DNA of 64,000 nucleotides, taken from NCBI GenBank assembly GCA_963738405.1, contig CAVTWJ010000022.1, positions 1 through 64,000 of the forward strand, written 5' to 3'. The stretch is from a candidate division FCPU426 bacterium (GTDB lineage Bacteria > Oederibacteriota > Muellerivitia > Muellerivitales > Muellerivitaceae). Under the pieces are notes generated by a model, which worked only from the letters and a program-made list of their open reading frames with translations, was not told the DNA's origin and did no database searches. Made by a program: the position numbers and the translations under genes. Positions 27,172 through 64,000 of this stretch are shown in pieces; within the stretch, counting starts at the first letter, position 1; each line of letters opens with the position of its first letter.

Positions 27172-27237
27172 GCTTTCCCAAGTATTCCGGGCATCAATCG
27201 AAAATCGGTAACTCAACCAACGTCCAGGGTCATTGAA

Positions 27238-28422: not shown

Positions 28423-28448
28423 TTTTATTTTTTCGGGAGAAGACAACG

Positions 28449-29159: not shown

Positions 29160-29161
29160 AA

Positions 29162-29641: not shown

Positions 29642-29741
29642 CCTAACACAAGCGAAATTGGGTTAAATTTTAAAAAGGCCTCAGGAATATCCAGACCTTA
29701 GTTGTAATAGATATATTCTTGATTTAAGAGAGAGCGCGAAA

Positions 29742-30395
29742 GTGAAAATTGGAATTAGAAGTGTTTTTTTAAAAATAACAAAAATAATTGTTTCTCCTGT
29801 TTGTTTATCAACTTATCGAAAAGTAAACAATGTTGTTAGAAAACCTTTTGTGAAAAGGAAGCTTTCTTCCCATACGAAACTTCATCTGGCTTGTGGCAAC
29901 CATATAATGGAAGGCTGGGCGAATATTGATCTTAATGGTATAAATCAAGTAGTCGAGTGGGATCTTACAAATCGTCTCCCAATACTTCCAGGTACAATCG
30001 AATTTATCTATTCCGAACATTTTATTGAGCATATAACTTTATCACAGGGAAGAAGGTTGTTAACTGAGTGTTACGAAGCCTTACGAATTGGAGGCGTAAT
30101 TAGAATAAGCACCCCTAACTTGCATATATTGATCGGTGACTATTTTTCTTTCAAAACCGGTAAATTTCTCGATGTAGGATGGAACCCAAAGACTCCATGT
30201 CAATTAATCAACGAAGGCATGAGACTTTGGGGCCACCAATTCGTTTACGATCTTCCGGAATTGAAACAAATGCTTACAAAAATTGGGTTTCGAAAAATAA
30301 TCGAACAAAAATGGCACGAAAGTTCTTATCAAGCACTTAAAGACCTGGAATGCCGACCATTTCACGGCGAAATTATCCTAGAAGCTATTAAATAA
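29742..30395 (+). CDS. SAM-dependent methyltransferase domain protein
   Basis: KLHLACG..GWANID, YSEHFIEH, L..GGVIRISTP. Confidence 0.8.
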   Translation: MKIGIRSVFLKITKIIVSPVCLSTYRKVNNVVRKPFVKRKLSSHTKLHLACGNHIMEGWANIDLNGINQVVEWDLTNRLPILPGTIEFIYSEHFIEHITLSQGRRLLTECYEALRIGGVIRISTPNLHILIGDYFSFKTGKFLDVGWNPKTPCQLINEGMRLWGHQFVYDLPELKQMLTKIGFRKIIEQKWHESSYQALKDLECRPFHGEIILEAIK

Positions 30396-30512
30396 ATTTC
30401 TAAGGAAATATTGTGACTCAAATGGCCTATAAGAATAATACAATAATTATTTCCGTTTTGTGTTTTTCCGAAAAGTTTCGATCGATTATTAATAAAATTT
30501 CGTTAAGTATTC

Positions 30513-31979
30513 ATGACACAAACGCTAAAAAATAAAGCGGTTAGTGCCTCAATATGGAGTGCAATAGATATCTTTGCCCGTCAGGGTGTCCAATTCATAA
30601 TCACGCTCATTTTGGCGCGTCTGCTGACCCCCACCGATTATGGTACCGTGGGACTTCTCTCCATTTTCATTGGCCTTGCGGGTGTTTTCATCAACGCGGG
30701 GTTTACCTCAGCTTTAATCCAACGCAAGGAAATAAACGATGTCGATCTTTCCTCCGTCTTTTACTTCAATATAGGCATATCCTTCTTCTTAAGTGTTCTT
30801 TTATGCGTTTTAGCTCCTTGGATTGCCGTTTTTTATGGGCTCCCTGTCCTGACCCCTCTCACCCGCCTATTAGCTCTTTCCCTTTTCATTGGGGCTTTTG
30901 GGACCGTACAAACCACCCTCATGACAAAGTCCCTTGATTTTCGAAAACAATGCATCGTGTCGCTCACGTCCGTAGTTTCATCCGGCACCATTGCCATTTA
31001 TTTAGCTTTTCATAATTACGGTGTATGGAGTTTAGTGTTATCCAATCTTTTCGCTACCTTTGCGACAACCTGTCTTCTTTGGTTTATCAATTCTTGGCGG
31101 CCGCATTTTGTCTTTTCGATAACAGCGATTCGTTCTCTATTTAAATTTGGTAGTTTCATCCTTGTGAGCAATTTGTCCGATATGCTCTATACCCGATTAA
31201 ACACATTGGTCATAGGTAAATTCTATTCCCCTAAAGATCTCGGATTTTACTCACGGGCCGACGGCACCCAACAACTTCCGGCAACCCTGTTGACAGGGGT
31301 CATTAACCGAGTGGCTTTTCCTATATTTTCTTCGATTCATCAGGAGAAGAATCATCTTCAGTCCGGCCTGCGAAAAGCCATTGGACTCGTAATGTTAGTC
31401 AATATCCCTGTCATGTTGGGTTTGGCTATCACCTCTAAATTGGTGGTCCTGGTCCTTTTTGGCGATAAATGGCTTCCATGCGTGCCTTACTTGCGTATCC
31501 TTTGCCTAGGCGGTCTCTTGTGGCCCATTCACGTCCTGAACCTTAACATTCTCGTCGCCCAAGGACATTCAAACCTTTTTTTCAAGTTGGAAGTAATTAA
31601 AAAAATAATCGGTATAACATTTCTTTGTATTGCGTGTTTTTTTGGCATCATTGCAATGGCATGGAGTATCGTTTTAACAAGCGTCATCGGTTTTGGCATC
31701 AATACCCATTACAGCGGTTTATTTCTCGGCTATGGTTCTCTTCGACAAATCACTGATTTGATTCCCTATTTTTTGGCGGGATTGGTAATGGCGGTATGTG
31801 TTTGGGGTGCAGGTTTGCTTTCCATTCATATTCCTTTTGTTCTCCTGACTATTCAGGTTTTTACAGGAGGGATTGTTTACTTTATTTTTTGTTATTTTCT
31901 TAAGCTTGCGGCCTTTACCGAGGCACTCAATATTTTAGGGTCCCGCTTTCAAGACAAATTTCCATTCGGTCCAAAATGA
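30513..31979 (+). CDS. wzx: Flippase (WzxC-like)
   Basis: LARLLTPTDYG, ALIQ, GVWSLV, LGFYSRA, LFGDKW; many TM segments. Confidence 0.9.
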   Translation: MTQTLKNKAVSASIWSAIDIFARQGVQFIITLILARLLTPTDYGTVGLLSIFIGLAGVFINAGFTSALIQRKEINDVDLSSVFYFNIGISFFLSVLLCVLAPWIAVFYGLPVLTPLTRLLALSLFIGAFGTVQTTLMTKSLDFRKQCIVSLTSVVSSGTIAIYLAFHNYGVWSLVLSNLFATFATTCLLWFINSWRPHFVFSITAIRSLFKFGSFILVSNLSDMLYTRLNTLVIGKFYSPKDLGFYSRADGTQQLPATLLTGVINRVAFPIFSSIHQEKNHLQSGLRKAIGLVMLVNIPVMLGLAITSKLVVLVLFGDKWLPCVPYLRILCLGGLLWPIHVLNLNILVAQGHSNLFFKLEVIKKIIGITFLCIACFFGIIAMAWSIVLTSVIGFGINTHYSGLFLGYGSLRQITDLIPYFLAGLVMAVCVWGAGLLSIHIPFVLLTIQVFTGGIVYFIFCYFLKLAAFTEALNILGSRFQDKFPFGPK

Positions 31980-32953
31980 TTAAGTCATCGCTAATACAAA
32001 ATGATTTTTCCAAAAAGCGCGCGCATGAAATCATGGTCAGTATTATCTGTTTCGCTTATAACCACGAAAAATATATCGTCCAAACCATTGAGGGTTTTTT
32101 ATCCCAAAAAACAGACTTTAAAATAGAAATCATCGTTCATGACGACGCGTCAGTCGATAGAACTGCCGAAATCATTCACGGTTATGAAAAAAGATATCCC
32201 GATATTTTCAGATGTATTTTCCAAAAGGAGAACCAATTTTCGAAATGCCCAAATTCAATGGTAGGCATAACCTTCAATAAAGCCCGTGGAAAATATGTCG
32301 CGTTATGCGAGGGGGATGATTTTTGGACGGATCCGCTTAAATTACATAAGCAAATCGCTTTTTTGGAAACAAATCCCGCTTATTCACTTTGTTTTCATCC
32401 TGCAAGTATTTTTTTCGAAGGAACCCCCGCAGTTCCCGAGGCCGGGCCTAAATTTCTTGGCCCTAAAATCATTAAAACGGCTTATACACTGAATGACCTT
32501 CTGCGTTACACAAATTTTATACCCACCAGCAGTGTTGTTTTTAGGACTTGGGAGGGTTTCAACAGTTTTCCAGAATGGTTTTATCAGGCTAAAATCGGTG
32601 ATTTTATCCTATCCTTGAGAATCGCGCAAAAAGGGAAACTGAAATTTTTAAACGAACCGATGTCAACTTACCGGATTCATTCCAATGGACTATGGTCAAG
32701 CACGAATACTTATGAACGATTAGTCATCTTTTCCGAATTATACCGATTATTCCGACCGCAAATCTCGTTGCAGCAATTCCCCTTTTATTCAATAGGCCTT
32801 TCCAATATATATTTCAACTTATACAACCAAGGGTTGAAAAGGGGCTTCCTATTCAAATCCTATTTAAATTTGTTAAAAGCATTTTATTTTTCATTCCCTT
32901 TTAATACCATTAACTTAATTTTTAGGTTAATCAGACAAATCTTCAAACATTAA
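31976..32953 (+). CDS. Glycosyltransferase family 2
   Basis: YNHEKYI, HDDASVD, ARGKYVALCEGDDFW, YRIH. Confidence 0.9.
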   Translation: MIKSSLIQNDFSKKRAHEIMVSIICFAYNHEKYIVQTIEGFLSQKTDFKIEIIVHDDASVDRTAEIIHGYEKRYPDIFRCIFQKENQFSKCPNSMVGITFNKARGKYVALCEGDDFWTDPLKLHKQIAFLETNPAYSLCFHPASIFFEGTPAVPEAGPKFLGPKIIKTAYTLNDLLRYTNFIPTSSVVFRTWEGFNSFPEWFYQAKIGDFILSLRIAQKGKLKFLNEPMSTYRIHSNGLWSSTNTYERLVIFSELYRLFRPQISLQQFPFYSIGLSNIYFNLYNQGLKRGFLFKSYLNLLKAFYFSFPFNTINLIFRLIRQIFKH

Positions 32954-33080
32954 GAGATTTATCTGCAAATTCATCACCCTTTTCAGAATATAATTTTAAT
33001 GAGTTTTTGTTTGTCTGACCGCTTTGTCGATCAATTAAAGATCCTCAAAATACCCATTTCATTCTATTTAGAATACTACT

Positions 33081-33350
33081 GTGAAAATAAAATCCACTTT
33101 CAAAGAAGAAGTTTCCATTGTCGTTCTAAATTGGAACAGCCGGGAGAAAACCATTGATTGTATTAAATCAATCGGAACGGAAACACTTTTTTACAGAGGG
33201 ATGATCCCCAAACCTATTGCCAAACCATTTTAGATCTGTTGTCAAACCCAACCTATTACGAAAGATTGTCTTTGTCTTCTTTCAACGAATACACCGAGCG
33301 ATTAAACTGATTCTCAGCAGGAAATGGGTTCGTGATTTAATCAAGGAATT
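33081..33350 (+). pseudogene. Fused remnant: GT2 N-terminus joined to GT4 C-terminus
   Basis: EVSIVVLNWNSREKTIDCIKSI, then in another frame NGNTF..DDPQTY...LSLSSFNEYTERLN*. Confidence 0.65.
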
Positions 33351-33408
33351 CAACCGCTGAGAATTAAGCTATGTATCCTCACTGGTTGCTTCAATTGCTT
33401 CACCGACA

Positions 33409-34401
33409 ATGTGTTTGATCGATCGGTTTAAAGGTTTCCCATTGAAGGAAAAGATCCGAATGAGTTTTCAAGACAAAATAATCGCCTATACCTCGCGGAC
33501 AGCCAAAAAAATGTCCTTCCAGGACCGGGCACTCAACTACGCCTGGTGGAAATGGAAGCATTTCAGGGATGGTTTGGATGACCAACTAGCCCCGGCCAAG
33601 GCCGGGTTTTCCAAAAATGGGATAAGGGCCTATTGGTATCGGGACATCAAAAATTTCGGGGACCTGTTAACTCCGTTCCTATTGAAGCATTACGGCTACG
33701 AACCCGTCTTCTCCTCGCCCTCAAAAGCATCGTTCGTATCAACCGGAAGCAACCTGGATATTTTCCCGAATGACTTTCAGGGCCTGATTTTAGGCTCAGG
33801 ATTTATTGACGAAAATTCCGACCGCTTATTTCCCCAGGCTTCCATCTTGGCTGTCCGGGGCTTGCTGACCCGAAAAAAATTGAAGCGGGGGAAAGAAGTC
33901 AAGCTGGGTGATCCGGGCTTGCTCATTTCCACCCTATTGCCGAAAAAAGAGGGGAAGATCTTCAAGGTGGGCATCCTTCCCCATTACGCTGAAAAAAAAG
34001 ATCCGAAATACCTGCGACTTTCCCAATCCCTTGAGAAACAAATAAAAATCATCGATGTTCAACAAGAGCCCCAACGGGTCCTGACGCTGATCGCTCAATG
34101 CCAAACCATCCTGTCCTCCTCCCTTCACGGGTTGATCGCGGCCGATTCCCTGCACATACCTTCCCGGTGGGTAGGCTCTCAAAATCTTTTGGGGGGGCGT
34201 TTTAAATTTGATGATTACTATTCCTCCCTTTCCCTGCGAGAAAAACCTTTAGTTCTAACCGGAAACGAGACCCTCCCGGAACTGACGGCTTTTTGCAAAA
34301 AAAAACCCGAGGGCAAAATCGAGAAGATGAAGGAAGAACTCGACCGTTTGTGGCGTTCCCTTTCCAGGGAACGAAACCGCCGCCCCAACCGAGGTTCCTG
34401 A
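33409..34401 (+). CDS. Polysaccharide pyruvyl transferase family protein
   Basis: NFGDLL, AVRG, LGDPGLL, GILPHY, SSSLHGLI.ADS, FKFDDYY. Confidence 0.85.
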   Translation: MCLIDRFKGFPLKEKIRMSFQDKIIAYTSRTAKKMSFQDRALNYAWWKWKHFRDGLDDQLAPAKAGFSKNGIRAYWYRDIKNFGDLLTPFLLKHYGYEPVFSSPSKASFVSTGSNLDIFPNDFQGLILGSGFIDENSDRLFPQASILAVRGLLTRKKLKRGKEVKLGDPGLLISTLLPKKEGKIFKVGILPHYAEKKDPKYLRLSQSLEKQIKIIDVQQEPQRVLTLIAQCQTILSSSLHGLIAADSLHIPSRWVGSQNLLGGRFKFDDYYSSLSLREKPLVLTGNETLPELTAFCKKKPEGKIEKMKEELDRLWRSLSRERNRRPNRGS

Positions 34402-34405
34402 ACCT

Positions 34406-35563
34406 ATGAAATTTCTATTCGTGGACAGGGTGGGAGCCAAATCCATTTGGTCGATCATCGGGCACATCGCCGTCCGACTGATTCAGGATGGCCATTCGGT
34501 CATTTACGTTAATTTCGACGATGGTAATCAGGCCTATACCCAAGAGGTCCCGGAAGGCGTTGATTTTTTTACGGTTAAAGTCCGGCCCAAAAAGTGGGTC
34601 GGCGACTTGATCCCCCAGCACTTGGCCTTTATTCGGGAGTTCCGCTCCCTGTTGCGAAGGTTAAAACCCGACTTTGTTCATACGAATTTCGCGGTACCGG
34701 CCATCGCGGCGCGGTGGGTTGCGGCAAAAGAAAAGGTGCCCTGGGTCGTCTCGACCCAGCACGAAACCTATGGTTCCATGAGTTTCCATTACCGTTGGGG
34801 TCTGCGGGCGACCGAACACCTCTGCTCCGCCATGGTCTACGTTTCCCACACGGTCGCGCGGAGTTTTGGGCGAAAAGCCGGGACAATGCAAAACACGGAT
34901 TTCAAAAGGCGCCCCATCCACGCGGTGATCCCCAACGGTATTGACGTAAAAGACCTTCGAAAAGCCGTCGCCGACGCCTCCCCCAGGATGAAGAGAAAGC
35001 TCGTTTGCGCGGGCCGGATGGTTCCCATCAAGGGGCAGGACGTGTTATTAAGGGCGATTCATCTGGTGGTGCCTGTTTTTCCCGACCTAAAGCTGTCGCT
35101 CATCGGCGGCGGGCCCGAGGAAAAACGCCTGCGGGAATTAGCCATGAAACTGGGTCTCGAAAGCCATGTTGAATTCACGGGCTGGCTCCCCCACTACGAC
35201 CAGGTGCTCCGTGAGATGGCATCGGCGGAATTGGTGGTCGTACCCAGCATGAACCTTCCCGGCATAACCCTTCACGAAGGCTTCGGTCTCGTGGTCGCCG
35301 AGGCGGTTCTTTGCGGAACCGCTTTTTTGGTGAGTGACATCCCCGTCTTCCACGAGGTTCTGGACCCATTTCAAGGGCGTGGACTTTTTTTCAAGGAAGG
35401 CGATCCGACGGCACTGGCCGGGGCCTTGAAAGAAATTTTTTCAGGAAAAAACCCGTTGGATTTCCCCCTAAAGCCCTTAACCGCGGAAGAGGAATCACGG
35501 CTTTCGTCCGAATCCATGGCGGAGGGTTATTTGCGCCTGTACCGTGAATTAGCCCCCAAGTGA
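34406..35563 (+). CDS. Glycosyltransferase family 4
   Basis: VIPNGID, GRMVPIKG, EGFGLVVAEA. Confidence 0.9.
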   Translation: MKFLFVDRVGAKSIWSIIGHIAVRLIQDGHSVIYVNFDDGNQAYTQEVPEGVDFFTVKVRPKKWVGDLIPQHLAFIREFRSLLRRLKPDFVHTNFAVPAIAARWVAAKEKVPWVVSTQHETYGSMSFHYRWGLRATEHLCSAMVYVSHTVARSFGRKAGTMQNTDFKRRPIHAVIPNGIDVKDLRKAVADASPRMKRKLVCAGRMVPIKGQDVLLRAIHLVVPVFPDLKLSLIGGGPEEKRLRELAMKLGLESHVEFTGWLPHYDQVLREMASAELVVVPSMNLPGITLHEGFGLVVAEAVLCGTAFLVSDIPVFHEVLDPFQGRGLFFKEGDPTALAGALKEIFSGKNPLDFPLKPLTAEEESRLSSESMAEGYLRLYRELAPK

Positions 35564-35605
35564 AGGTATGATCAACTCGAAAATGAATAGTCAAGGCCCC
35601 TCCCT

Positions 35606-36421
35606 ATGACGCATCCCAAAATCACCTCCATCATCACCGTTTACAACGGTGAAAAAACGATCAATAGGGCGGTCCAAAGCCTTTTAAGCCAGACCGAAAA
35701 GAACATTGAGGTTCTGGTGGTCAACGACGGCTCCACCGACGGAACCGGTAACATCCTTCAAGGTTTCACGGACCTCCGGCTGAGGGTCATGGGCCTTCCC
35801 CGAACCGGGCGGGCGGGCGCCCTGGCCCGCGCCTGCCGGGAAGCCAAGGGGCTTTATATCGCCAACCTCGACGCGGATGATTTCAGCCATCCCGAAAGGC
35901 TGGAAAAACAAACCGCCTTTCTCGACGCCCACCCGGATTATGCCTGGGTAGGAACCGGCGAAGAACAAGAGGATGACCGGCGGAATGAGCACCTTCGGCG
36001 CACTTACCCTTTGGAAAACGATGAAATCCGGCGTCAATCCGCCAAATGTATCCCCTATTGCCATAGTTCCATCATGTTTCGAAAGAGTCTCATAAGCGAA
36101 GGCATCAATTACGACCCTTCACAACCCTTCCTGATTGATTTTGAGTTTTTCCTGAGAGTCGCTTCACGGAATAAAGTGGCTAACCTTCCAGAAATACTGG
36201 TGAAACGCTACGTAAGCGGGGAAAGCTATTTCCAGCGCACCTTCAAGACCTCCCGCCAAAACAGAAGACTGGCATGGCTCTGCGCGACCTCCGTGGGCCG
36301 TTTACACCTGCCCATTCATTTCTATATCTACCCCCTGGCGCGTCTGTTATATCCCCTCATGTCAAACCGACTGAAGCGTTGGATCCGCAATCACCAAGGG
36401 TTAAGGGAATCCGGTGTTTAA
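35606..36421 (+). CDS. Glycosyltransferase family 2
   Basis: VYNGE, VNDGSTD, LDADD, RLEKQ. Confidence 0.9.
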   Translation: MTHPKITSIITVYNGEKTINRAVQSLLSQTEKNIEVLVVNDGSTDGTGNILQGFTDLRLRVMGLPRTGRAGALARACREAKGLYIANLDADDFSHPERLEKQTAFLDAHPDYAWVGTGEEQEDDRRNEHLRRTYPLENDEIRRQSAKCIPYCHSSIMFRKSLISEGINYDPSQPFLIDFEFFLRVASRNKVANLPEILVKRYVSGESYFQRTFKTSRQNRRLAWLCATSVGRLHLPIHFYIYPLARLLYPLMSNRLKRWIRNHQGLRESGV

Positions 36422-37796
36422 TATATTCCATGACAATATCGCTTGGGTGTTTCTGGCTGCTGGCCCTGTTTTATTATTATTGATCATTCAAATATTTAGC
36501 ATCCCCGAAAGGGGGCTCTACCTAACTTTTTTCGCCACGGGCATCCTGATTACACCCCACCTTCCCATCCTGCGGAATAAATTCACAGCAGTTGAAATCA
36601 TCATGGGCTTGACCTGGCTCGCATTATTGTCCCGTCCCCATGAAGCCCGCAAATCCCCGCCCCTCACAAAAGTCCAAACCAACGCTTTATTTTGGGGCGG
36701 CCTTTTCATTACTTGGACCATCCTTTCTTTTTCGATCAATGGCATTTACCATCCGGAAACATTTATCGGCAGTATTGTTGAAACCATCAATTTTGTTTAT
36801 GGATATTTGATGTTCGTAACCGTCATTTTGATGGCACGGGATTGGGGGCGTTGGGAAAACTGCCTGAAGGGTTGGCTTTGGGGAGCCGTGGTGGTTAGCT
36901 TTTTCGGCGTATTGGCCTTATCCGGCCACGGTCCGAAATGGTCCTATGATGAATTTTCACACAGAATTTGCTCAACCTTACGCACGGATAATCAAGTTCC
37001 TTCATTTCTTTTACCAACTTTTACAGTTCTGGTTTTCATGATTGTTGAAAGGGAAAGAAAACCTTTTGAAAAATGGTTCTTAACAGCACTTTTAATTTGT
37101 GTCTTTTTAACATCCATTGGTTCCGGAAGTCGAACCGCGTTCCTGATGCTTATCGTCACTATCATCGGGATTTTGTATGTCGCATTTCGCGATTCACAAT
37201 ACAAGGCTTTCTCCACAAAACGTTTTGTCAAAATCTCGTTTTTCCTTTTTATCGGATTCCTTTTTTACATCTTCCTCGCTTTGGTGAATTATCAGGACGA
37301 CTATGCCTTGGGGCGTACCCCGTCTTGGCAGAGGCCCGTCGTGACGCTATATGATTGGGTTCGCGGTAAAGCTGATTTGGACGATAACCGAACAGAACAA
37401 CTTAAGTTTGTTTCTGAAAACATCAATGACAACCTGGTATTAGGGTCAGGCCCTAAAAATTATGGTGAAGAATACGATGTCCAGGAAATCCATAACACCT
37501 ACGCGGGCGTTCTTTTTCAAATGGGCGTACCAGGCCTGTTTCTTTTTTTAACTTGGCTGTTCATCGTTGTCCATACCGGCTGGTTGGCCAGCAAAAGAAT
37601 CCAAATACCTCATCAACGCTTGATGGTTATATCCATGGTGGTGGGAATGATTCTTTTGTTGTTATACAGCATGACCATGTTTGGTTTGAGGCAAAGAAAT
37701 ATCTGGTTATTAGCAGGACTGTTGGTGGCAAGCGATAGTTTCATTCCAAGGCGAACGGGGCAAATGAACCAAAGGATAGGGTCCCGTGAATTATGA
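36414..37796 (+). CDS. wzy: O-antigen ligase/polymerase family membrane protein
   Basis: Multi-TM; SGSRTA, G.G and HNTY...G..G motifs of Wzy_C. Confidence 0.8.
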   Translation: MFNIFHDNIAWVFLAAGPVLLLLIIQIFSIPERGLYLTFFATGILITPHLPILRNKFTAVEIIMGLTWLALLSRPHEARKSPPLTKVQTNALFWGGLFITWTILSFSINGIYHPETFIGSIVETINFVYGYLMFVTVILMARDWGRWENCLKGWLWGAVVVSFFGVLALSGHGPKWSYDEFSHRICSTLRTDNQVPSFLLPTFTVLVFMIVERERKPFEKWFLTALLICVFLTSIGSGSRTAFLMLIVTIIGILYVAFRDSQYKAFSTKRFVKISFFLFIGFLFYIFLALVNYQDDYALGRTPSWQRPVVTLYDWVRGKADLDDNRTEQLKFVSENINDNLVLGSGPKNYGEEYDVQEIHNTYAGVLFQMGVPGLFLFLTWLFIVVHTGWLASKRIQIPHQRLMVISMVVGMILLLLYSMTMFGLRQRNIWLLAGLLVASDSFIPRRTGQMNQRIGSREL

Positions 37797-38859
37797 AAGT
37801 CTATTTCCTAATCCCTATAGAAGCGGCATGAAAACCAAACCTTCCCACAAAAGCAACTTTACCGTCGTGGTATTAAATTGGAACGCTTGGAAAACCACGA
37901 TCCGTTGCTTGGACTCTTTGACCCATTCCAGACAAACCCACTTCGATATCCTTGTGATCGATAACGGATCAACGGATCAGTCGGCGCCTCGGCTGAGAAG
38001 ATACCTCGCCCGTTTAAAATCGGCCCCTTCCGCTAAACCCGGCCCCATCCCATTTCAGTACCAATTCAAGGATGTCATCACCAAGGGGACCTTTGAAACC
38101 ATAGGCCGCAACACATTGATGTGTTGCGATTCCAATTATGGTTTCACGGGGGGGTGTAACGCCGGAATTCATTTCGCCCTCGAACAAAAAACCAAAACCT
38201 TGTTACTTTTAAACAACGACGCCACGATGGAGACCCCATCCGTCCTCTTGCTGAAGGACGTGATGAAAAATTCAGACTCTTCGATCGTGGGGGCCCAAAT
38301 CGCGGATTTAAAAACCAAAGCCATCACTTTTTCAAAGCGCCTCTGGCCGCAATTGTTATTTAAAAACATTCTTCATCAAGACCGGCCATCCCGCGCCGAT
38401 ACCGAGAACGAGTACTGGCGATCGGATTCTATCACGGGTTGCGCGATGCTCATCGATAGCGGACTTTTAAAACAACGCTTTATAGACGAGGGCTATTATC
38501 TGGACCCCTCTTTCTTTATGTATTGCGAGGATATTGATCTATGCCTATACGCCAAATCGGTGGATAAAACCTGCGTGGTCGCCCGGGATGTCGTGGTTCT
38601 TCACGAAACGCAAAAAAGCCCCCATGGCCAGCTGAGGGCCTTGTATTACTCCTATCGAAACGCCATACGGCTTTTTCGAAAATGGATGCCGGCGCCCCTA
38701 TACGCCCTTTATGTCATCTACCGTGTTCTGCTTCTCTCCCTCGTTTACACTCGCCGTTTTTTTCGAGAAGGGTTTAAAATGGCCCCGTTTCTCAAAATCG
38801 CCCTCACCGCCCACTTGGACGCCTTGAGAGGCAAGTTTGGAAAATGGAAGAATCACTAA
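37786..38859 (+). CDS. Glycosyltransferase family 2
   Basis: VVLNWN, IDNGSTD, NYGFTGGCN, LLNND, FFMYCEDID. Confidence 0.9.
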   Translation: MNYESLFPNPYRSGMKTKPSHKSNFTVVVLNWNAWKTTIRCLDSLTHSRQTHFDILVIDNGSTDQSAPRLRRYLARLKSAPSAKPGPIPFQYQFKDVITKGTFETIGRNTLMCCDSNYGFTGGCNAGIHFALEQKTKTLLLLNNDATMETPSVLLLKDVMKNSDSSIVGAQIADLKTKAITFSKRLWPQLLFKNILHQDRPSRADTENEYWRSDSITGCAMLIDSGLLKQRFIDEGYYLDPSFFMYCEDIDLCLYAKSVDKTCVVARDVVVLHETQKSPHGQLRALYYSYRNAIRLFRKWMPAPLYALYVIYRVLLLSLVYTRRFFREGFKMAPFLKIALTAHLDALRGKFGKWKNH

Positions 38860-54013: not shown

Positions 54014-54844
54014 ATGAAAACCGCGAATACCCAATTTAATAAAATAAATGGGTTTATGGATTCGGACGCGGCCCAAGAACTCGAAGAAATCGTAAAGCGT
54101 GTGGTGGCCCGCTTTCATCCCGATAAAATCATCCTTTATGGCTCCTTTGCATATGGGATTCCCCACGCGGAAAGCGATTTTGACCTGCTCGTGATTTTGC
54201 CCGAACCGCCATCCAGCCAAGCGGGTTGGGAAACCGCCTATGAAATGCAGATCAAGCGCATGCTCCAATTAATCTTCATGAAACCTGCGGTATTCGAGGA
54301 AGAAAAGGATGTGGTAGGCGGACTAGCCTATCCCGCGCACCATTGGGGAAAAGAGCTCTATTCCTGTCCGCCGGAACCAACCCGGCAATTCCTGATGGAC
54401 ACCGCGCACCGGACAAGGGAACAAGTCATTTGGGATTTCATTCAAGGCTGGCTCAAGAGGGCGAAAAGCCGGTTGACGATGATAGGGATTTCCCTGAAAC
54501 AGGATTCCGAGGATTATTTCTACGCCGGGTTCTACGCGCAAATGACGGTGGAGAGCTATCTGAGGGCTTTCCTGGCTTGGCGGCAGGTTCCCAATACCAA
54601 AACGCGCGAGATCCAAAAGTACTTGGCCCTTTTGCCGGCGGAAGACGCTTCCCTGGCGGGGAAGCTTGCCGAAGCGGATTGGTTGAGCCCCTATGGGGAA
54701 GATTTTCCTGATCCAGCCGATCCCCCGATGGACCGGGAAACGGCCCTCAAGGCGGAAATTGAAGCCAAACGGGTTCAAGGCTTGATATTGGAACGATTGG
54801 GAAGTTACTTGGCCCAAGGGCGGCCTGGTTTTCAGGGTGGGTAA
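54014..54844 (+). CDS. Fused minimal nucleotidyltransferase (MNT)-HEPN protein
   Basis: IILYGSFAYG.P..ESDFDLLV, followed by W...A...F.AQ..VE.YL.AFL...KT (HEPN-like). Confidence 0.8.
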   Translation: MKTANTQFNKINGFMDSDAAQELEEIVKRVVARFHPDKIILYGSFAYGIPHAESDFDLLVILPEPPSSQAGWETAYEMQIKRMLQLIFMKPAVFEEEKDVVGGLAYPAHHWGKELYSCPPEPTRQFLMDTAHRTREQVIWDFIQGWLKRAKSRLTMIGISLKQDSEDYFYAGFYAQMTVESYLRAFLAWRQVPNTKTREIQKYLALLPAEDASLAGKLAEADWLSPYGEDFPDPADPPMDRETALKAEIEAKRVQGLILERLGSYLAQGRPGFQGG

Positions 54845-54943
54845 GCTTCGTGACAGGGCCCCAAGCGGGGGATTCGGTTTACTCGCCCCCGGGCTCTTTG
54901 TTAGAGGGTGATATAATCTTTTTAAATTTAAGGGAGGGACGCC

Positions 54944-55192
54944 ATGGAGCACCAGCATTACAAATTCGACCGGATTACCTTCGATCCGGAAAAATGTTTT
55001 GGGAAACCTTGTATCCGAGGCTTTCGCATGTCCGTGGCCTCTATTTTGGGGTATATGGGCGGGGGCATGACCATCCCTGAAATCCTGAAGGAATGGCCCG
55101 AACTTGAGAAGGAAGACATCCTGCAGGCCCTCTCCTACGCGGCGTTGGAAACCGAGGAGCGGTTTATTCCAGCACAACCCTTTCCAATATGA
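54944..55192 (+). CDS. DUF433 domain protein (antitoxin-like)
   Basis: RIT.DP....GKPCIRG.R..V..IL...G....EIL...P.LE.EDI..AL.YAA. Confidence 0.9.
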   Translation: MEHQHYKFDRITFDPEKCFGKPCIRGFRMSVASILGYMGGGMTIPEILKEWPELEKEDILQALSYAALETEERFIPAQPFPI

Positions 55193-55268
55193 TTCAGGGG
55201 ATCTCGAGCGTGAAATGAATGGATAAGGGCGTCTTGCCCGCCCAAAACTGTGATGATATATTTTAACT

Positions 55269-55451
55269 ATGACCCTTAAAAACATCGAAGGCGCTGTCCG
55301 AAAACTAAAGCTCGAAGATCAAAGAAAATTCCTGCGCGACCTGCCCGCACTCCTGGGAATATCCTCGGAAGACATGGCTCGGTTAAAGACCGCCGAGAAA
55401 GCCTTCGATTTTTGGGACAACCCCGAAGACGCGGAATATGACTCCCTATAA
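55269..55451 (+). CDS. Small antitoxin upstream of the MazF-like toxin
   Basis: Acidic C-terminus AFDFWDNPEDAEYDSL; overlaps the toxin start; TTGCCC-17 nt-TATATT promoter. Confidence 0.75.
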   Translation: MTLKNIEGAVRKLKLEDQRKFLRDLPALLGISSEDMARLKTAEKAFDFWDNPEDAEYDSL

Positions 55452-55959
55452 TCGCGGCGACGTTGTTCTTGTGGCATTTCCATTCACTGATCTAACCACC
55501 CAAAAGATGCGCCCTGCTCTTGTTTTATCCTCGAACTCATTCAATCGCGATGGATTGGATGTTATTCTGGCCGGTATCACCTCCCAAACCGGAAAATCAG
55601 CGCTCGGTTCGGATATTTTGTTGTCTCCCGAAGATCAAATCCACGCGGGCCTTCGAAAACCCTCCATCGTTCGACTCGGAAAGCTTGTGACCCTGGATCA
55701 TCGGTTGATTCGTGGGAATCTGGGTAAAATACCTGAATCCACCTTAGCCCAATTGACCCTTGTTTTACATAATCTATTGTCGTCTGACCAAAAGGGTGAG
55801 GGATTTTACGGTGCCCAAGAACCACCAGCCGTTTACGCTGCCCCTGCCTCGAGACATCAAGTTGAGAGGCGAGGTTTGGGTGTGCCGGGCCGTAAGTTAA
55901 ATGGGCCCGGCGATGGAAAAACTCGGAAGAAAAAAACAGGAACAAAGAAGAAAAAGTAG
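55438..55959 (+). CDS. mazF: PemK/MazF family endoribonuclease toxin with basic C-terminal tail
   Basis: RGDVVLV.FPFTD...K.RPALVLS, ITS, GL.KPS.VR. Confidence 0.88.
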   Translation: MTPYNRGDVVLVAFPFTDLTTQKMRPALVLSSNSFNRDGLDVILAGITSQTGKSALGSDILLSPEDQIHAGLRKPSIVRLGKLVTLDHRLIRGNLGKIPESTLAQLTLVLHNLLSSDQKGEGFYGAQEPPAVYAAPASRHQVERRGLGVPGRKLNGPGDGKTRKKKTGTKKKK

Positions 55960-56035: not shown

Positions 56036-59000
56036 TCAGTGAATCACAACCACTTTCCCGCCGTACACCACAGCCCCCACATGGACCTGGTAGATATAGA
56101 GGCCCGAGGCCACTTGGGAACCGCTGGTATTCACCAAGTCCCATTCCACCTGGTTGAGACCCGCATTGCCCGATAGGTTGGCGGAATAGACCCTTTCCCC
56201 CAGGATGTTGTAGAGGTTGATCTGGATCGGGGCCGATTGCTGTAAATTGACTTTGAAGTTGACCGGCTCACCGCTCACCGAAATGTTCGGCGCGGCGATC
56301 ACCACCCGGCCATTCCAATTTGTCACTGTTCCGGTGGGTGTCGCTTGATCCCCTTCCCTTGCCTGGCCGCCCGTGTTGGGTGTGGGCGTACTCGTTGGAG
56401 TGTTGGTCGGGATCGGCGTGACCGTCGGCAGGAAACTACCAGACACCTGTACCAGGTTGAAACAAGCCAGGGCACAATTGGCGCTTCGCCCAGCCCAGGT
56501 CACCACGTAATTCCCCGCGTTCAGGTTCCAATAACGGGTCGAGATTCCCCCGATATGGCCGTTGACGTCCTCGGTGTGCAGGGCCGTTCCCAACGACTGC
56601 ACTACGGTGTACTGATTCGCGTAATTGTATGTATCAAGCGCTCCCTGGATCTGGACATTCCAGGTGTTGGAGGAAACGTTCGGCGCCGACACCGAGGCCG
56701 AAATCTTGTAGGCCCCGCTGGAGGGCACGTTTACTGAGTAACTCTGTGACCCGGCCCCGGTCGTTGAGTAAATATAGGTCGTACCATCCGAAGCCGTCGC
56801 CACCGCCAGGGGAGACGAAACTCCGCTTCCGTCCGCCAAGTACCCGCAGGTGTCCGACAAACTCGGGGTAAATGTCGAAGTCGGGGTCAGGGTGGAGGTC
56901 GGCGTCCGAGTGTTGGTAGCCGTCCGAGTCAGAGTCGCTGTCTTGGTCGGTGTGGTTGTTGGCGTTGAAGTTATAGTTTGGGTAGGTGACAGGGTATTGG
57001 TGGCCGTGTACCAGGTTCCGGTAGGTGTGGTCGTAGCTGTTGGTGTTATTGTTTTCGTTGCCGTGGGTGTGGCCGTGGACATGAAGCTGGTGGAGGTCTG
57101 CACCATGGTGAAACATGCCAGGGCGCAGTTGGCGGCTCGCCCACCCCAGATCACCATGTAAGTTCCCGCGTTCAGGTTCCAATAACGGGTCGAGATTCCC
57201 CCAATATGTCCGTTGACATCCTCCGTGTGAAGAACCGTCCCTAACGATTGCACCACCGTGTATTGATTGGCGTAATCTTCGATGTCGAGGGCCCCAAGGA
57301 TTTGCACATTCCAGCTGTTAGAGGCGGCGTTCGGCGCCGAAACGGATGCTGTCATCTTATAAGTTCCGCTGGAGGGGATATTCACCGCGTAGGTCACCGC
57401 CCCTGTTCCGCTTGTGGAGTAGACATAGGTCGTTCCAGACGACGCCTCCACAGCCCAAGTCAAGGGTGCCGACACTCCCGAGCCATCCGCCAGATACCCG
57501 CAAGCGCCGGACGGGTTGGGCGTAAGCGTGCTGGTGGCTGTTGGGGTCGCTGTCGCCAAGGCCGGTACCACAAAATACTGCGTCGCGTAATTATTGGTGT
57601 CTGAAACACCCTGAATCGTCACATACCAGGCGTTATGCAAATCGGTGCCAGGCGTGGGGTTGGGCGTGGCCGTTGCGGCAGGTTGGGTGCCAATCGGTGT
57701 CGCCGTGCTGGTTGGAATGGGCGTGGCGGTTGGCATGAAACTGTCTGAGACTTTCACCAGGTTGAAGCAGGACAAATCGCAATTGGTGTACCGGCCTGTC
57801 CAGCTCCACCACGTATTCGCCCGCGTTCAGGTTCCAGTAGCGGGTCGATGTTCCACCCACATGACCTGTCACATCCATGGAATAGAGGGGAGACCCGGCC
57901 GTGGCCGTCATCTTATAGGCACCACTCGAAGGCACGATTACCGTGAAATCCGCTTCGCCCGCGTTTAAAACAGTCGCGTAGATATAGGTCGTTCCGTTTC
58001 CATCCACTCCGCTCGCCAAGGGCGGCACGACCCCGCCACCATCCGCCAAATACCCGCAAGAACCTTGCGGGTTCGGCGTCAGGGTGGAAGTGGAAGTCAC
58101 CGTCGGAGAATCGGTCGGGCTGGGTGTATAGGTGGGCGTATCCGTTGTAGCGGGAGTGTTGGTGGGCGAATCCGTGGGTGTGTCTGTGATGGTTGGGGTA
58201 TCGGTCGGAGTGTCTGTGGTCGTGTCCGTTGGCGTGTCGGTGAGGGTATTCGTGGACGAATCGGTAGGCGTTTGGGTTTGAGTAAAGGTCAGCGTGGCCG
58301 TCTGGGTGAAAGTCAACGTGGCGGTGCGTGTGACCGTCGGGGTCGGTGTTTGGGAGTTGATGGCGTTTTGGGTCGCCGTCGCGTTGGCGTTAGCCGTGGC
58401 AGTGCCATTTGCATTAGCAGTGGCGGTCGCGTAAACGCTATTAAAGGCATAAGCGCCAATATCCCAACTGGATCTTGTGGCCCCCGTGTAATCATCCGTG
58501 AAAGTTCCACTCAAATTAGCCCCCCTGCCCACACAGGTGGCTCCGGCGTTTATATTTAAATTCTCGCTGCCGGATAAGGAGTTAAAGAATTCTTTGGCCG
58601 CCGTGGAAATATAACTGCTGGTTATGGTCTTGATATAGCTCGCGGAGGGGGTCGAGGCATAAACGCAATTCACAAGGGTCCAGGATGTGCTGACGCTTCC
58701 CACAAAGTCGGCTCCTGAATCAAAAAACGCGCAGTTAGTAATGGCCGCGGCCCCGTTTGAACCCGTCGCGGTGATACCGGCCGTATTGTTCACAAAATCG
58801 CAATTAGCAAAAATCGGCAGGGTCCCGCCGTTATCTTGTTCTTCCCACCACCCGTAATTAAGACAATCCACAAAAAGACAATTGTGGAATGTCGGAGAAT
58901 AGTTCCCGTTATTGGAAAGAACTCCCGAGGCGGTTCCGTGTCCGATAAAGGCGCAACGATCAAAATAAAGTTTGTCGGTAGAGGCGCTGTCCACAAAAAG

Positions 59001-60119
59001 ATTATCTGAAGCCGCAGACTCGAAAGTACAACCAACGAATGTCACCGGGTCATTTGTAAAATTGGCAAAGAACTGGCTTGTAATCGCTTTCGGCGTTCCC
59101 ACAACACCGTGATAAAAATTGACATTATAAAAGGTTAGGAAATAAGAATTATTCCCCGGTCCATAGACATCCCATGTCGCGGAGTTTAAAAACATGGTTA
59201 CTGGTGACGCGGCTGTTACACAATCACCAGTTGCCAGTGTGACCGGAAGAGTCTCCGTTGTATTAGAGAAAATTTGAAACGTCACAGTTCCTGAGGCTGC
59301 TGCTGCAGCAGCTTGCAAAGTAGAATAAAAAACAGAAGTTTTTAGATTTTCAACCGCATTGCTGGGAGTGTTGGTTATAGTCGGCGAATTCGTGACTGTC
59401 GGGGTATTCGTTTTTGTCGGCGTGTTAGTAATGGTAAATGTGGGTGTAAAAGTATATGTAGGCCCACCGGGCGTCCAAGTTGGAGTTAGACTCGGGGTTG
59501 GGGTCGAAGTATTAGGAGAAGCAACAGTAAAAGAAGCATGCGCGTAACCTGGACCGTTTGTCCCAGTACAAGTTTGCATATAATTCTCACCGACTACCGC
59601 CACTAAATTGTAAGTCCCTGGGGTAAACGTGCTAGGAATCGTCACATTGAAAACCTGGGTAACGGGAGTTGCTGTCGTGAATGAATAACTCGTATTCCAA
59701 CCGTTGGCCGATGTATCAGCTTGGGTGCAATTTGTTGGGCCGAAAGGAGTTCCTGAACCAGAATTAGTGTCCACGAGTAAATATTGATTAGTTGAACCAC
59801 AGGCTTGTGCAGTCGTGGTGCCAATCGGCTCCGTCATAATTTCTAAATACTGTCCTTGGTAATAATTCGAATCGTTGTATATAAGAGTGACACCTGCTAA
59901 TTGGCTACCAGCTGTTCCCGTGGTGTTGGCAAGATTTAATGTGACAGTAGGCGTAGCCAACAACAATCCCGGGATCAATGCAAGAACTACTGCCAAGACA
60001 ATCACCATCGAATAACCTAACTTTTCGGAAATTAAGGTGCTTTTTCCCAAGTTCGGCTTAACCTTCAAGCCAACCGCCAAAAAACGTGCAAAAATAAATT
60101 GTGGAATTTTTCCGATCAC
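56036..60119 (-). CDS. Large secreted protein: beta-helix module, Thr stalk, three copies of a CGYLADG domain, T9SS-like CTD (~1360 aa; one frameshift at ~57806)
   Basis: ORFs 57633-60119 and 56036-57775 join if one G is removed (the paralog reads [12 protein letters not shown]). CTD AAPNIS...LYNILGE...VASGLYIY...GKVVVIH. Confidence 0.82.
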
Positions 60120-60180
60120 GGGAACCTCGGTTTATTCGTTTTTCAGGAGACTGTTTCTACATCTTGTAGGTGTGGTTGAG

Positions 60181-60200
60181 GCCGACACTTGCAGGTGGGG
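60181..60200 (-). promoter_or_regulatory. Conserved 20-nt leader motif, copy 2 (CCCCACCTGCAAGTGTCGGC)
   Basis: 19/20 identical to 23625-23644. Confidence 0.55.
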
Positions 60201-60401
60201 CGGTAGGTGTGACCGATTGCCTATTTAAACTTTACATCTTTGTAATAGGGGTAAATATGACCCATATCACTCAAAGGTAACTGTTTAACTAAATTATACA
60301 ACTTTTGGAGAAAATTGAGACCAAAATACTTTTTTAGTAATTTGGTGATCTGAATTGCTTGTAATTACCATCAAAAAGAACTTCTAACTTCTTCCAAATT
60401 G

Positions 60402-63400
60402 TTAGTGGATAACAACGACTTTCCCGCTGTAGGCCATTACCCCTACTCGAACTTGGTAGATATAGAGGCCCGAGGCTACTTGGGTTCCACTGGCATTTGC
60501 CAAGTCCCATTCGATCTGGTTCAACCCCATTTGGCCTTGAAGGGTTGCGGTATAAACCTGCTCCCCGAGGATGCTATAGAGAATCAGGTGAACCTCTGTG
60601 GATTGCTTCAAGTTGACCCTGAATTGAATAGGCGTTCCATTTGAGGAAATGTTCGGCGCGGCTACTACCTCCGGACCCGTCCAAGGCGTTCCGGTCGAAG
60701 TTGCAGAAACGGTAGGCGTTTCATCCGTCACATCACCATTCAACGAAGAATGCCCTTGGTTTGGAGAGGGTGTGAATGTCGGGGTTGTAGTCGGCGTTAA
60801 TGTTTTCGTCGTGGTGAAGGTAGGCGTGGGAAAGAAGCCGGTAGATGTCCGCACCAGGCTAAAACAGGCTAAAGCGCAATTGGCGCTACGACCTCCCCAT
60901 GTCACTACGTAATTTCCCGCATTCAGGTTCCAATACCGCGTTGAGGTTCCCCCAATGTGGCCATTCACGTCTTCCGTGTGCAGAGCGGTTTTCAGGGTTT
61001 GCACCACGAAATATTGATTCCCGTAATTGGTGTTGTCCATCACACCTTGGATCTGGACATTCCAGCTGTTGGAAGAAGCGCTTGGCGCCGACACAGAGGC
61101 CGACATCTTGTAGGTCCCGCTGACGGGGATGTTTACCGTGTAATTCTGTGACCCAGCCCCGGTGGTTGAGTAAATATAGGTCGTACCGTCTCCCGCAACC
61201 CCTACCGCCAGGGGTGAGGCCACCCCGCTCCCATCCGCCAAATAACCGCAGGCCCCGGTTGGGTTCGGTGTAAGGGTACTTGTAGCAGTCGGGGTCGCCG
61301 TCGCTAGAGGCAGAACCACAAAATACTGAGTCGGATAATTGTTCGTATCTGAAACACCCTGGATCGTGACATACCAGGCATCATGCAAATCGGTGCCCGG
61401 CGTGGGGTTGGGGTTGGGCGTGGACGTAGCCGCAGGTAGAGTTCCCACCGGTGTCGCCGTGCCGGTTGGAATGGGCGTGGCGGTTGGCATGAAGCTGTCC
61501 GAGACTTTCACCAGGTTGAAGCAGGACAAATCGCAATGGGTGTACCGGCCTGTCCAGCTCACTACATATTCGCCCGCGTTCAGGTTCCAGTAGCGGGTTG
61601 ATGTTCCACCCACATGGCCCGTGACATCCATGGAATAGAGAGGAGACCCCGCTGTAGCCGTCATCTTGTAGGCTCCGCTCGAAGGCACCACCACTGTGAA
61701 ATCCGCCTCACCAGATCCAAGAACGGTCGTGTAGATATAGGTCGTTCCGTTTCCATCCACTCCAGTCGCCAGGGGCGCTGAGACCCCGCCGCCATCCGCC
61801 AAATATCCGCACCCCGCAACGGACGGGTTCGGTGTCAGGGTGGAAGTACTGGTCACTGTCGGGGAATTGGTGGATGTAAAGGTGTCTGTGATCGTAAAGG
61901 TCGGCGTGTCCGTAACAGTCAGTGTATTCGTCGATGTGACGGTGCTGGTAGGCGTGTCAGTGACCGTGGGAAAGTTGGTAACCGTATAGGTGCTCGTGGA
62001 TGTGGATGTAACCGTGGGGGAATCCGTAACGGTAAAGGTAGCGGTGGAAGTAGGGGTAATAGTAGGCGAATCCGTAACCGTATTGGTTGAGGTGAAGGTT
62101 TGAGTGTCGGTCGAGGTCGAAGTGGACGTGGAGGTTTGGGTAAAGGTCGGGGTATTGGTGACCGTATCGGTCAGGGTGGAAGTCTGCGTGGCTGTCGGGC
62201 TGTCGGTGGGCGTGGTGGTTTGAGTGGAAGTGGCAGTCACGGTCGGGGAATCCGTTGGAGTAGCCGTCTGAGTATGGGTTGAAGTCGCGGTTTGTGTATT
62301 CGTCGTAGTGTCCGTTTGGGTGTTGGAAGAAGTAGCAGTCTGGCTATTGGTAGGCGTAGCCGTCTGGGTGCTCGTCGAAGTCGACGTTTGGGTATTCGTT
62401 AAAGTCGCCGTTGGGGTGTAGGTGGTGGTATAGGTCGGCGTGGCGGTGGGGGTAGGCGTCGGGGTTTTGGTGTTGGTAGGCGTTCCCGTGAAGGTGCTCA
62501 AGGGCGTCAGGGCGCAGTTGCCCATGTTGAATTTGTAGACCAGGCTGTTGTTGTTATCCACGGCGAACCAATTGCCGTTGCTGTCGGCGGCGACGCCTTC
62601 CGCGTCGGTAAAGGCCCCGGAAGTGCCTTGGGTCGTGATACCGATGACCCCTCCGGTGATATTGTTGTAAAGTCCCACTTCCCCGGCCCCGTCGGAAACG
62701 TAAATATCGGTCACGCCGCCGGTGGAACCCAGAGATAGAAACTCGATGCCCGACAGGCCGTTGCTGGTGTCGATTTGAAGTTGAAGCGCTGTTCCCTTGC
62801 CGTTGAAACGGTAGACCTGCTGGGTCGAATCATCTCCCACATAAATATCACCACCAGCGTCCAGGGCCAAACCCGTGGGGCTGGTAAAGGTCACGGGGCT
62901 ATGATCGGTCGGCCCCCCGAATTGTTTATTCAAGGCTCCGGTGTTATCCAGAAGGACAACCCGTGAATTGTTGTTATCGGCCACATAAACCGTGGTTCCC
63001 GCCGAATTGACCGCGATGCCGTAGGGGTTGTTGAACCCCAAGGTTCCCCCCCATTGAACGTTGCTGGAACCCGCCGCGTGGCTGGTGCCATAGCCCCAGC
63101 TGACATCCACCAGGTTGTTGTTGGAGTCGGTCACATAAACCTTTTCCGACCCATCGACGGCGATGCCGAAGGGACTGCTGGCACCGTTGGACCCGCCCGG
63201 CACCGACCAGCTAGTGACCGCGGAACCGGAGGCCACGCTGAACACATCCACCGTGCTATTAGCCCCATCCGCCACATATAGGTAGGTTCCCGCCGAATCC
63301 TCAGCAGCTCCCCAGGGGTCGGTATCGCCCGATTCCCACAAACTCAGGCAATTCCATGCGGCCGGCGGGGTTTTGGTGGGGGTGAAGGTAACCGTAGGAG

Positions 63401-64000
63401 TGGCCGTAGGTGTTGAAGTGACGGTTGGGCTAAGGGTTGGGGTGTAGGTGGGCGTCGAGGTCATGGTTGAGGTCTTGGTGGAGGTGGGGCTGTTGGTGAC
63501 GGTAAAGGTGGAAGTCGGCGGGCAGTTGGCCGGAACGATTTCCAGCAAGGCCATATCGGCCAGGGCCGCCGTGCCCAAAATATAGTTGGAGGTATAGACC
63601 CCGGGCGCTCCATTCGGGTTGTTGTCATCCCCCTCGGCGGAATAGACCGCCCCTGGATTTTGGATCCAGTGCTGGGTCTGGTTGGCGCCGCTGGCGGAAA
63701 TGGTGTCGCCTGTTGTAGTCACCGCCGCGCAGAAACCCAGCAGATGGCTGTTTTGGTTGAGGGTGGTGATATTAATGCTCTGGTTTTTATTGCTGACAGG
63801 TCCGAGGGAGGTGGAGTAGTTCCAAGAGGAGACGGACGGAAGGGCGCCGGTGTAAAGAAAGGCGCCCACATTGAGGCTTCGGCTTAAGGACTGGGCGATG
63901 GAAACCGCCACGTTGGCCGAGCCCGTGGGGGGATTTTCCATATAGTATTCTTCCAAGGTGGCGTGGTTGGTGTTGTCTTGAACATCAAATATCTGCGTCA
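60402..64000 (-). CDS. Large secreted protein (5' end outside window): NHL propeller, Thr stalk, two CGYLADG domains, T9SS-like CTD
   Basis: Frame open to the window edge; PxGIAVD/N NHL repeats; C-terminal part paralogous to 56036-58080. Confidence 0.85.

Follow-up and report, generated by a model that had tools for sequence, protein, structure and literature searches.

An apparent non-circular permutation of a CBM6/CBM35-like jelly roll, side by side with its standard form, in two paralogous genes of a candidate division FCPU426 bacterium

Two paralogous genes, here called Gene A and Gene B, lie on the minus strand of a 64,000-nucleotide stretch of DNA from a candidate division FCPU426 bacterium (GTDB phylum Oederibacteriota; assembly GCA_963738405.1, contig CAVTWJ010000022.1, positions 1 to 64,000 of the forward strand); the window, below, means this whole stretch. 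Both genes bear a rare module that structural models place among carbohydrate-binding jelly rolls of the CBM6/CBM35 kind. The first copy of the module in each gene has lost an internal pair of strands, and a homologous hairpin reappears after the end of the domain, beyond a Thr/Pro-rich linker and ahead of one or two intact copies. By the order of its segments, the first copy appears to be a non-circular permutation of the intact module, and the displaced hairpin is conserved by selection. The arrangement may have arisen by duplication and complementary deletions, with the displaced hairpin folding back to complete the short copy from which it is missing.

The coordinates of all of these pieces were verified by translation. 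The intact module occurs three times, once in Gene A (60849-61250, 134 amino acids) and twice in Gene B (57098-57502 and 56447-56848, both from tblastn and translation), in agreement with the three copies listed by an initial annotation made from the sequence. These copies are 134-135 amino acids long, run from CGYLADG to CALACF and are 72-81% identical to each other. The short modules, of 101 amino acids each (61509-61811 in Gene A and 57755-58058 in Gene B, all on the minus strand like every piece described here), have lost the 33 amino acids at intact residues 57-89, and the junction runs straight into LYSMDVTGH. The orphan hairpin is 27 amino acids long in each gene (61311-61391 and 57563-57643) and aligns to intact residues 58-84, that is, to 27 of the 33 deleted residues. 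It keeps the QYFVV strand, and in a 10-row alignment (A8) its W, V, I, G and D show little or no variation; the core-facing residues of both strands (W, V and I in one; Y, F, V and V in the other) are preserved. The initial annotation was right that a Thr/Pro linker precedes the orphan, and it underestimated the length, which is 39 amino acids in Gene A (61392-61508) and 37 in Gene B as opposed to the proposed 30 or so. A second linker, of 20 amino acids (61251-61310 in Gene A), then leads to the intact copy, and it is an ordinary pre-module linker.

The likeness of the orphan to the intact hairpin goes beyond chance. When the short-plus-orphan piece was compared with the whole 3.18-Mb assembly by tblastn, it matched the internal hairpin of the intact copy with 63% identity over 27 amino acids (E 8.1e-4); the module itself was found in Genes A and B only. 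If N and C denote the parts of the module before and after the hairpin, H, then the intact copies read N-H-C and the first copies read N-C-linker-H (alignments A5 and A8; tblastn), so that at the level of sequence the first copy qualifies as a non-circular permutation. Both the absence of the segment from the first copies, with its homologue placed after the domain end, and the description of the result as a non-circular permutation had been put forward in the initial annotation, and both are borne out by the alignments and the tblastn search.

The fold of the module was modelled with AlphaFold2 from a 35-row alignment of the intact copy, which gave a predicted local distance difference test score (pLDDT) of 94.7, a predicted TM-score of 0.88 and eleven strands. 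A Foldseek search of the PDB with this model returned 13 chains at E <= 0.001, every one a CBM6, CBM35 or CBM6/35-like module, with TM-scores of about 0.62-0.75. The best match was the CBM6 chain 2cdp_B (E 7e-5, TM 0.69/0.72), and the CBM35 structure 2w1w was also among the top matches (TM about 0.7), in support of the CBM-like beta-sandwich suggested earlier. The remaining strands of the short module superpose on full CBM6/35 chains with Z scores of 7.2-8.4 and root-mean-square deviations of 1.8-2.4 A over about 90 residues; the superposition on 2cdp_C, for example, has a Z score of 8.4 and a deviation of 1.8 A over 90 residues (model range 2-102). The models thus place the module, in a diverged form, among the carbohydrate-binding-type jelly rolls akin to CBM6 and CBM35, two-sheet folds of about 120-140 residues (galactose-binding-domain-like). 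As in 2cdp, 2w1w and 7zvo (BT0996-C), the intact copy is predicted to form an eleven-strand jelly-roll sandwich (TM about 0.66-0.72), and like those families it is found in secreted proteins as a tandem accessory module that follows Thr/Pro linkers, and beside beta-helix regions in its relatives. The modules of the window share only 9-26% sequence identity with these structures; they also differ in possessing three conserved cysteines, and they may have lost the structural calcium site.

In BT0996-C, as described in PMC9843283, sheet A is built of strands 1, 3, 4, 11, 6 and 9 and sheet B of strands 2, 5, 10, 7 and 8, and the eleven strands of the intact model follow the same succession. If that numbering carries over, the deleted strands, mapped by strand count, would be b6 and b7, the D and E strands of the jelly roll. 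By the same mapping, b6 would lie inside its sheet between b11 and b9, and b7 inside the other between b10 and b8. Loss of the pair would then either leave a slot in each sheet or let b8 and b9 shift inward, so that the sandwich becomes slimmer. By sequence count, the short and intact copies of Gene A share about 68% identity in strands b8 to b11, the neighbours of D and E, and this fits a packing environment that has not changed.

The orphan hairpin is under purifying selection and is not decaying. Differences between Genes A and B were analyzed by Nei-Gojobori counts with a Fisher test. Over the 27 codons of the orphan there are 9.0 synonymous and 3.0 non-synonymous differences, which give a non-synonymous rate (dN) of 0.049 and a synonymous rate (dS) of 0.868 (p 1.7e-5). 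For the short module the counts are 25.8 and 12.2, with dN 0.056 and dS 0.456 (p 1.9e-9). The dN/dS ratios are therefore about 0.06 for the orphan and 0.12 for the short module.

The same arrangement recurs in a second organism, in three fragments of open reading frames (ORFs) that are 55-60% identical to the window's proteins and are each reported on one 9558-nt contig. P0014 contains NHL repeats followed by a short module with the same deletion (YIMTANAGVNGAPLHPVTV); P0005 contains the end of a module, a linker, an orphan (TWFVQIQGIPDTDNVVNQYFVV), a linker of 17 amino acids and the start of an intact module; P0038 contains two intact modules and the C-terminal domain. The orphan of this organism is 54% identical to that of Gene A and 64% identical to that of Gene B, and the folded modules are 55-59% identical. 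The flanks D(L/T)H(D/N)xW and QYFVV(P/L)(A/P)LAT are common to the orphans of all three.

How could such an arrangement arise? In the model of permutation by duplication, a tandem duplication is followed by the loss of redundant parts, the complementing parts keep the intermediates functional, and removal of both outer ends gives a circular permutant. The explanation that we favour, which we would hold with about even confidence, also begins with duplication and the loss of redundant parts; the proposed history differs in needing three internal or flanking deletions, with an outcome that is non-circular. The common ancestor of Gene A, Gene B and the gene of the second organism would have carried tandem copies, N-H-C-L-N-H-C (L being a linker). 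The first copy would have lost H, the inner D/E pair with its 33 residues, and the second would have lost N and C and kept H, leaving N-C-L-H-L ahead of the next intact copy. The tethered pair of strands would then fold back in cis onto the short module and complete both sheets, and the permuted unit would work as one CBM-like module beside the ordinary intact copies. Two features of the sequence are consistent with this history. The linker before the orphan ends in TPNP, a motif that also precedes every whole module, as expected if the N part of a former copy was deleted. Furthermore, the deleted and retained pieces have boundaries that agree to within 1 residue at one end and 5 residues at the other, arguing that the losses were complementary and not independent decay. 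The DNA of Genes A and B shows about 90% identity over the module part, and so the two genes record one ancestral event and not two independent ones.

Docking of the hairpin on the short module is plausible and weakly supported by structure prediction, which placed part of the hairpin. An AlphaFold2 monomer model was made for the 176 amino acids of the short module, linker and orphan, from a 20-row alignment in which the orphan was covered by the Gene B row only. The short module was predicted with a pLDDT of about 80-90 and the linker with less than 50, and the second strand of the orphan (QYFVVLP, residues 162-168) was modelled as a beta strand, within a block (161-170) of pLDDT 75. In a separate complex test with ESMFold2, the short module (33 rows) was presented with a 37-residue orphan peptide (10 rows) in three runs, alongside three controls. 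The scores were 0.44, 0.52 and 0.45 (median 0.45), the best control reached 0.02, the runs shared at least 67% of their contacts, the partner pLDDT was at least 51, and the result was graded 'weak support'. The initial annotation's proposal that the hairpin completes the short domain thus gains weak support from the second strand, placed at moderate confidence, and from the complex test, and none from the first strand of the orphan (146-152), which was left unplaced with a pLDDT below 50 in a monomer model whose overall mean was only 68.6. That annotation had set against its own claim the combination of a short domain that folds without the peptide and a peptide that does not dock; the short module is indeed predicted confidently, yet the peptide is not wholly undocked.

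The unplaced first strand is one of several points that weigh against completion in cis. The mark used in the complex test is passed by 116 of 157 solved complexes and by 2 of 215 mismatches, with 18 of the 157 and both of the passing mismatches at or below 0.60, and the tool itself describes this score range as 'more often wrong than right unless the guess was likely beforehand'. The short module and the hairpin together resemble solved intact CBM6/35 folds, so the pass may reflect memory of the fold rather than the chemistry of this copy. The alignment for the short module consisted mostly of intact homologues, and its confident model therefore partly inherits the intact geometry. The output of the complex and monomer tests, scores and strand assignments, does not show where the orphan strand would sit, and the superposition on CBM6/35 chains spans model residues 1-104 only. 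From jelly-roll geometry, a few residues should be enough for closure in cis, far fewer than the 37-39 residues of the linker, and an inward move of strands F and G could heal the loss of D and E and yield an autonomous slimmer sandwich that needs no complement. The frameshift of Gene B described below, if real, would end translation ahead of the orphan. Finally, the view that P0014, P0005 and P0038 belong to one gene is drawn from their equal 9558-nt contigs and overlapping frames, and the frame changes several times.

The alternative that survives best, unlikely in our estimate, is that the short module is just such an autonomous, slimmed jelly roll, with F and G in the positions of D and E, and that the orphan is conserved for another reason. 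The orphan could then join the intact module next to it as an edge pair of strands at that module's free G/F edge, or serve as a structured spacer or recognition element within the linker. The short module is confidently predicted on its own residues, just one strand of the orphan was placed, and the orphan lies 20 amino acids from the following intact module as compared to 37-39 from the short one. In addition, the strand order of BT0996-C given in PMC9843283 suggests that D pairs natively with G, and E with F, and so the free edge of an intact module would offer native-like partners. Against this, the intact modules of P0003, P0004, P0007, P0008 and of the genomes G094 and G012 have no upstream hairpin, and the orphan occurs only alongside a short module. 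The match between deleted and retained pieces would also have to be a coincidence (a 27-residue remnant would fall within the 33-residue gap in about 6% of cases under a uniform model), and in the complex test the orphan scored with the short module 0.43 above the controls.

A further alternative keeps the docking of the hairpin and changes its target: the hairpin would enter a short module in another molecule nearby, or in the paralogue, and thereby cross-link or chain surface proteins, much as in donor-strand complementation or runaway domain swapping. We consider this completion in trans, which the initial annotation had also raised, improbable. The linker, long and Thr/Pro-rich and probably stiff, exceeds what closure in cis needs; the two paralogues have matching parts; the sorting-type domain at the C-termini of these proteins is widespread in the phylum, and so the proteins are probably crowded at the cell surface; and the score of the complex between hairpin and short module was obtained with separate chains. 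On the other hand, a tethered partner is strongly favoured entropically, and no chaperone, usher or protease partner turned up, albeit with no search aimed at such a partner. Prediction tools do not distinguish swapped from closed forms, and the tests made here do not separate cis from trans.

Slightly less probable still is the view that the orphan is a non-functional relic of a decayed copy and that damage to the short module will end in its loss. The broken reading frames lend it some weight, both in the gene of the second organism, which is read in several frames, and in Gene B, and so does the rarity of the module family, which numbers 37 proteins at E <= 0.001 (15 at E <= 1e-10) among 1.84 billion cluster representatives. 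The dN/dS values given above, at dS of 0.46-0.87, speak against decay, as does the conservation of the orphan between organisms (54-64%), which is about equal to that of the folded modules (55-59%). The indels in the contig of the second organism fall every 100-150 codons or so and resemble sequencing noise.

The break in Gene B is a one-base insertion by comparison with Gene A (GTGGTGGAGC as compared to GTAGT-GAGC). It falls in the short module, at about 57803-57805, so that the gene (56036-60119) reads as two overlapping ORFs, 57633-60119 and 56036-57775. The codons 3' of the break are still under strong purifying selection, arguing that it is either recent or an assembly error. In a soil-metagenome run, 28% of the sampled words were present, and two short public contigs covered 57711-57806 and 57918-58096, neither of them spanning the insertion; two further runs of the same study gave nothing. 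A programmed frameshift was also considered, given that the reading frame shifts in both Gene B and P0014 no more than about 5 codons past YWNLNAG. This idea was rejected: P0014 changes frame at least three times within 318 amino acids, for which sequencing noise is the simpler explanation.

It is very improbable that mis-joined repeats in a metagenome-assembled genome created the short-plus-orphan arrangement: the region is repetitive (five module copies with Thr/Pro linkers) and one public contig from the soil run ends exactly at 57806, but the arrangement is present twice in the genome, with many synonymous differences between the copies, and again in an unrelated contig at 55-60% protein identity.

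Several searches were made for further examples. A word-index search for homologues of the 176-residue short-plus-orphan piece gave 5 matches among longer proteins, namely the three ORFs of the window plus P0003 and P0004, which have intact modules only, and none among 965 candidates of near-equal length. Scans of metagenome contigs produced 107 pattern matches with the single protein and 88 with alignment A3, and no confirmed relative among them. A scan of genome contigs found four loci in metagenome-assembled genomes of Bacteroidales, which are only 22-23% identical to the query along its residues 10-73 (E 6e-4 to 9e-4). A 321-residue piece matched 2 of 41 related genomes, the window's own and G012, the latter with an intact module only. 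In the phylum-wide search with alignment A3, the module part was matched only in G000, G012 and G094 among the 150 matches listed. The G094 protein (L013, 361-3264; 967 amino acids) has a large unannotated N-terminal region, a Thr/Pro linker, an intact module, a second sandwich-like region and the same C-terminal domain, and within it neither a short copy nor an orphan hairpin was found. The G012 protein (L002, 562-2520; 652 amino acids) has an intact module in its middle and a hydrophobic N-terminus, and the next gene is prepilin-type-like. The relative P0018 carries an N_methyl motif, which indicates that the module is also used in pilus-associated proteins.

Within the wider family, distant members carry an FEAE...DSFFV pattern and align over the whole module. 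Two of ten scanned relatives matched GH115_C (PF17829), P0022 at 6.6e-8 and P0017 at 6.5e-14; the modules of the window did not reach this family in the family scan. Pfam CBM_35 (PF16990) was likewise approached only by the downstream ORF of Gene B, at 26.1 bits against a cut-off of 28 (E 1.2e-5), with no listed match in Gene A. Modules of the GH115_C type, with the pattern FEAE...G.Y...AP...DSFFV, are distant relatives alignable along their whole length, and the modules of the window form a small cysteine-bearing subgroup. Three cysteines are conserved in this subgroup, the first residue of the module and those of a C..LxC motif near its end. The structural calcium site of BT0996-C, near b1 and b11, is formed by Glu, Glu and Asp according to PMC9843283. 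In alignment A4, where distant relatives have the E, E and D of an EAE...D pattern, the window's subfamily has L, D and A, so that, as mapped by alignment pattern only, the site may be lost; a disulfide may have replaced it. The neighbours of the module in its relatives include right-handed beta-helix regions, PA14 domains, propellers and pilin-like N-termini. This fits an accessory binding module of secreted proteins, with carbohydrate as the presumptive ligand. In the CAZy families CBM6 and CBM35, carbohydrate is bound at site A or cleft B, with an aromatic and Asn signature.

Gene A (60402-64000) continues beyond the end of the window and encodes a protein that is 1560 amino acids long in the genome. 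Its order is a signal peptide, two N-terminal repeats, an NHL propeller (Pfam NHL, E 2.5e-16), a long Thr/Pro linker, the short module, the orphan hairpin, the intact module and a C-terminal sorting-type domain. The upstream ORF of Gene B (828 amino acids) contains the N-terminal region, a Thr/Pro linker and the short module, and its tail after the frameshift is out of frame; the downstream ORF contains the end of the short module, the orphan, the two intact modules and the C-terminal sorting-type domain. The N-terminal part of Gene B differs from that of Gene A and gave no Pfam match and no sequence match to a solved structure in the PDB at E <= 1. The C-terminal domain is of the Por_Secre_tail / FlgD_ig-like type. 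In Gene A (60405-60656) it falls under the curated cut-off, with 19.7 bits against TIGR04183 / PF18962 (type A sorting for the type IX secretion system). In Gene B (56039-56257) its profile scores are 28.7 bits for FlgD_ig (Pfam cut-off 27) and 23.0 bits for TIGR04183, exactly at the NCBIfam cut-off of 23. The module-bearing proteins are probably secreted and retained at the surface. The sorting-type domain (...GLYIYQV...GKVVVIH) is very common in the phylum, mostly at the ends of very long open frames and often with many copies per genome. A profile from alignment A3, two rows of which included this domain, matched 89 of 99 phylum genomes, a tally that therefore reflects the sorting domain.

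Elsewhere in the window, the small genes just downstream of Gene B (54014-55959) look by eye like toxin-antitoxin or defence-type genes; they encode a nucleotidyltransferase-like protein with a helical C-terminal half, a protein of 82 amino acids and a MazF/PemK-like protein of 173 amino acids. A polysaccharide biosynthesis cluster at 25393-38859, some 20 kb from the module genes, coincides with a stretch of low GC content (38-47%, as compared to 55-62% elsewhere in the window). Its genes include Wzz / tyrosine-kinase-like, DegT aminotransferase, WbqC, flippase, several glycosyltransferase, pyruvyl transferase and Wzy_C genes.

We know of no CBM6/35 module in which the D and E strands have moved behind a linker, and among the papers listed by a full-text literature search for permuted CBM jelly rolls, none is on the subject, as judged by title. 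Non-circular permutation itself has precedents, including the HK97-like capsid fold of Bordetella phage BPP-1 described in PMC3863775 and the non-cyclic permutations found by topology-independent alignment in PMC2096629. The first copies resemble these cases, as those sources present them, in that homologous elements follow one another in a new order, one for which a fusion of the termini does not account. They differ in that the standard and permuted forms stand side by side in one polypeptide. The moved element hangs from some 40 residues of disordered linker, suggesting an origin that is recent and still legible.

The proposed completion of the short module also has a counterpart in a quite different setting. 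In chaperone-usher pili, which use donor-strand complementation and exchange, and in type V pili, which use strand exchange, a beta-sandwich is completed by a strand from outside. A single edge strand of an Ig-like fold is missing in these systems, the donor comes from another subunit, and a chaperone or protease step is involved. The short module would be similar in being a beta-sandwich without some of its strands that is completed from outside the domain core, and different in that two inner strands of a jelly roll are gone and the donor is tethered on the same chain.

Rearranged folds are usually recognised from distant structures only, when the path between the forms is no longer visible. 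Here, one polypeptide still displays both the standard and the rearranged form, together with the scars that the deletions left in its linkers, and the moved piece is under selection. If the hairpin does complete the short module, these proteins would provide a natural worked example of how duplication and complementary loss can re-order the strands of a beta-sandwich, and also a naturally split jelly roll whose parts could be separated and recombined in the laboratory. If completion occurs in trans instead, bacterial surface proteins would here be joined in a new way, by an analogue of donor-strand exchange that needs no chaperone, is built from a carbohydrate-binding fold and is found in a little-studied phylum.

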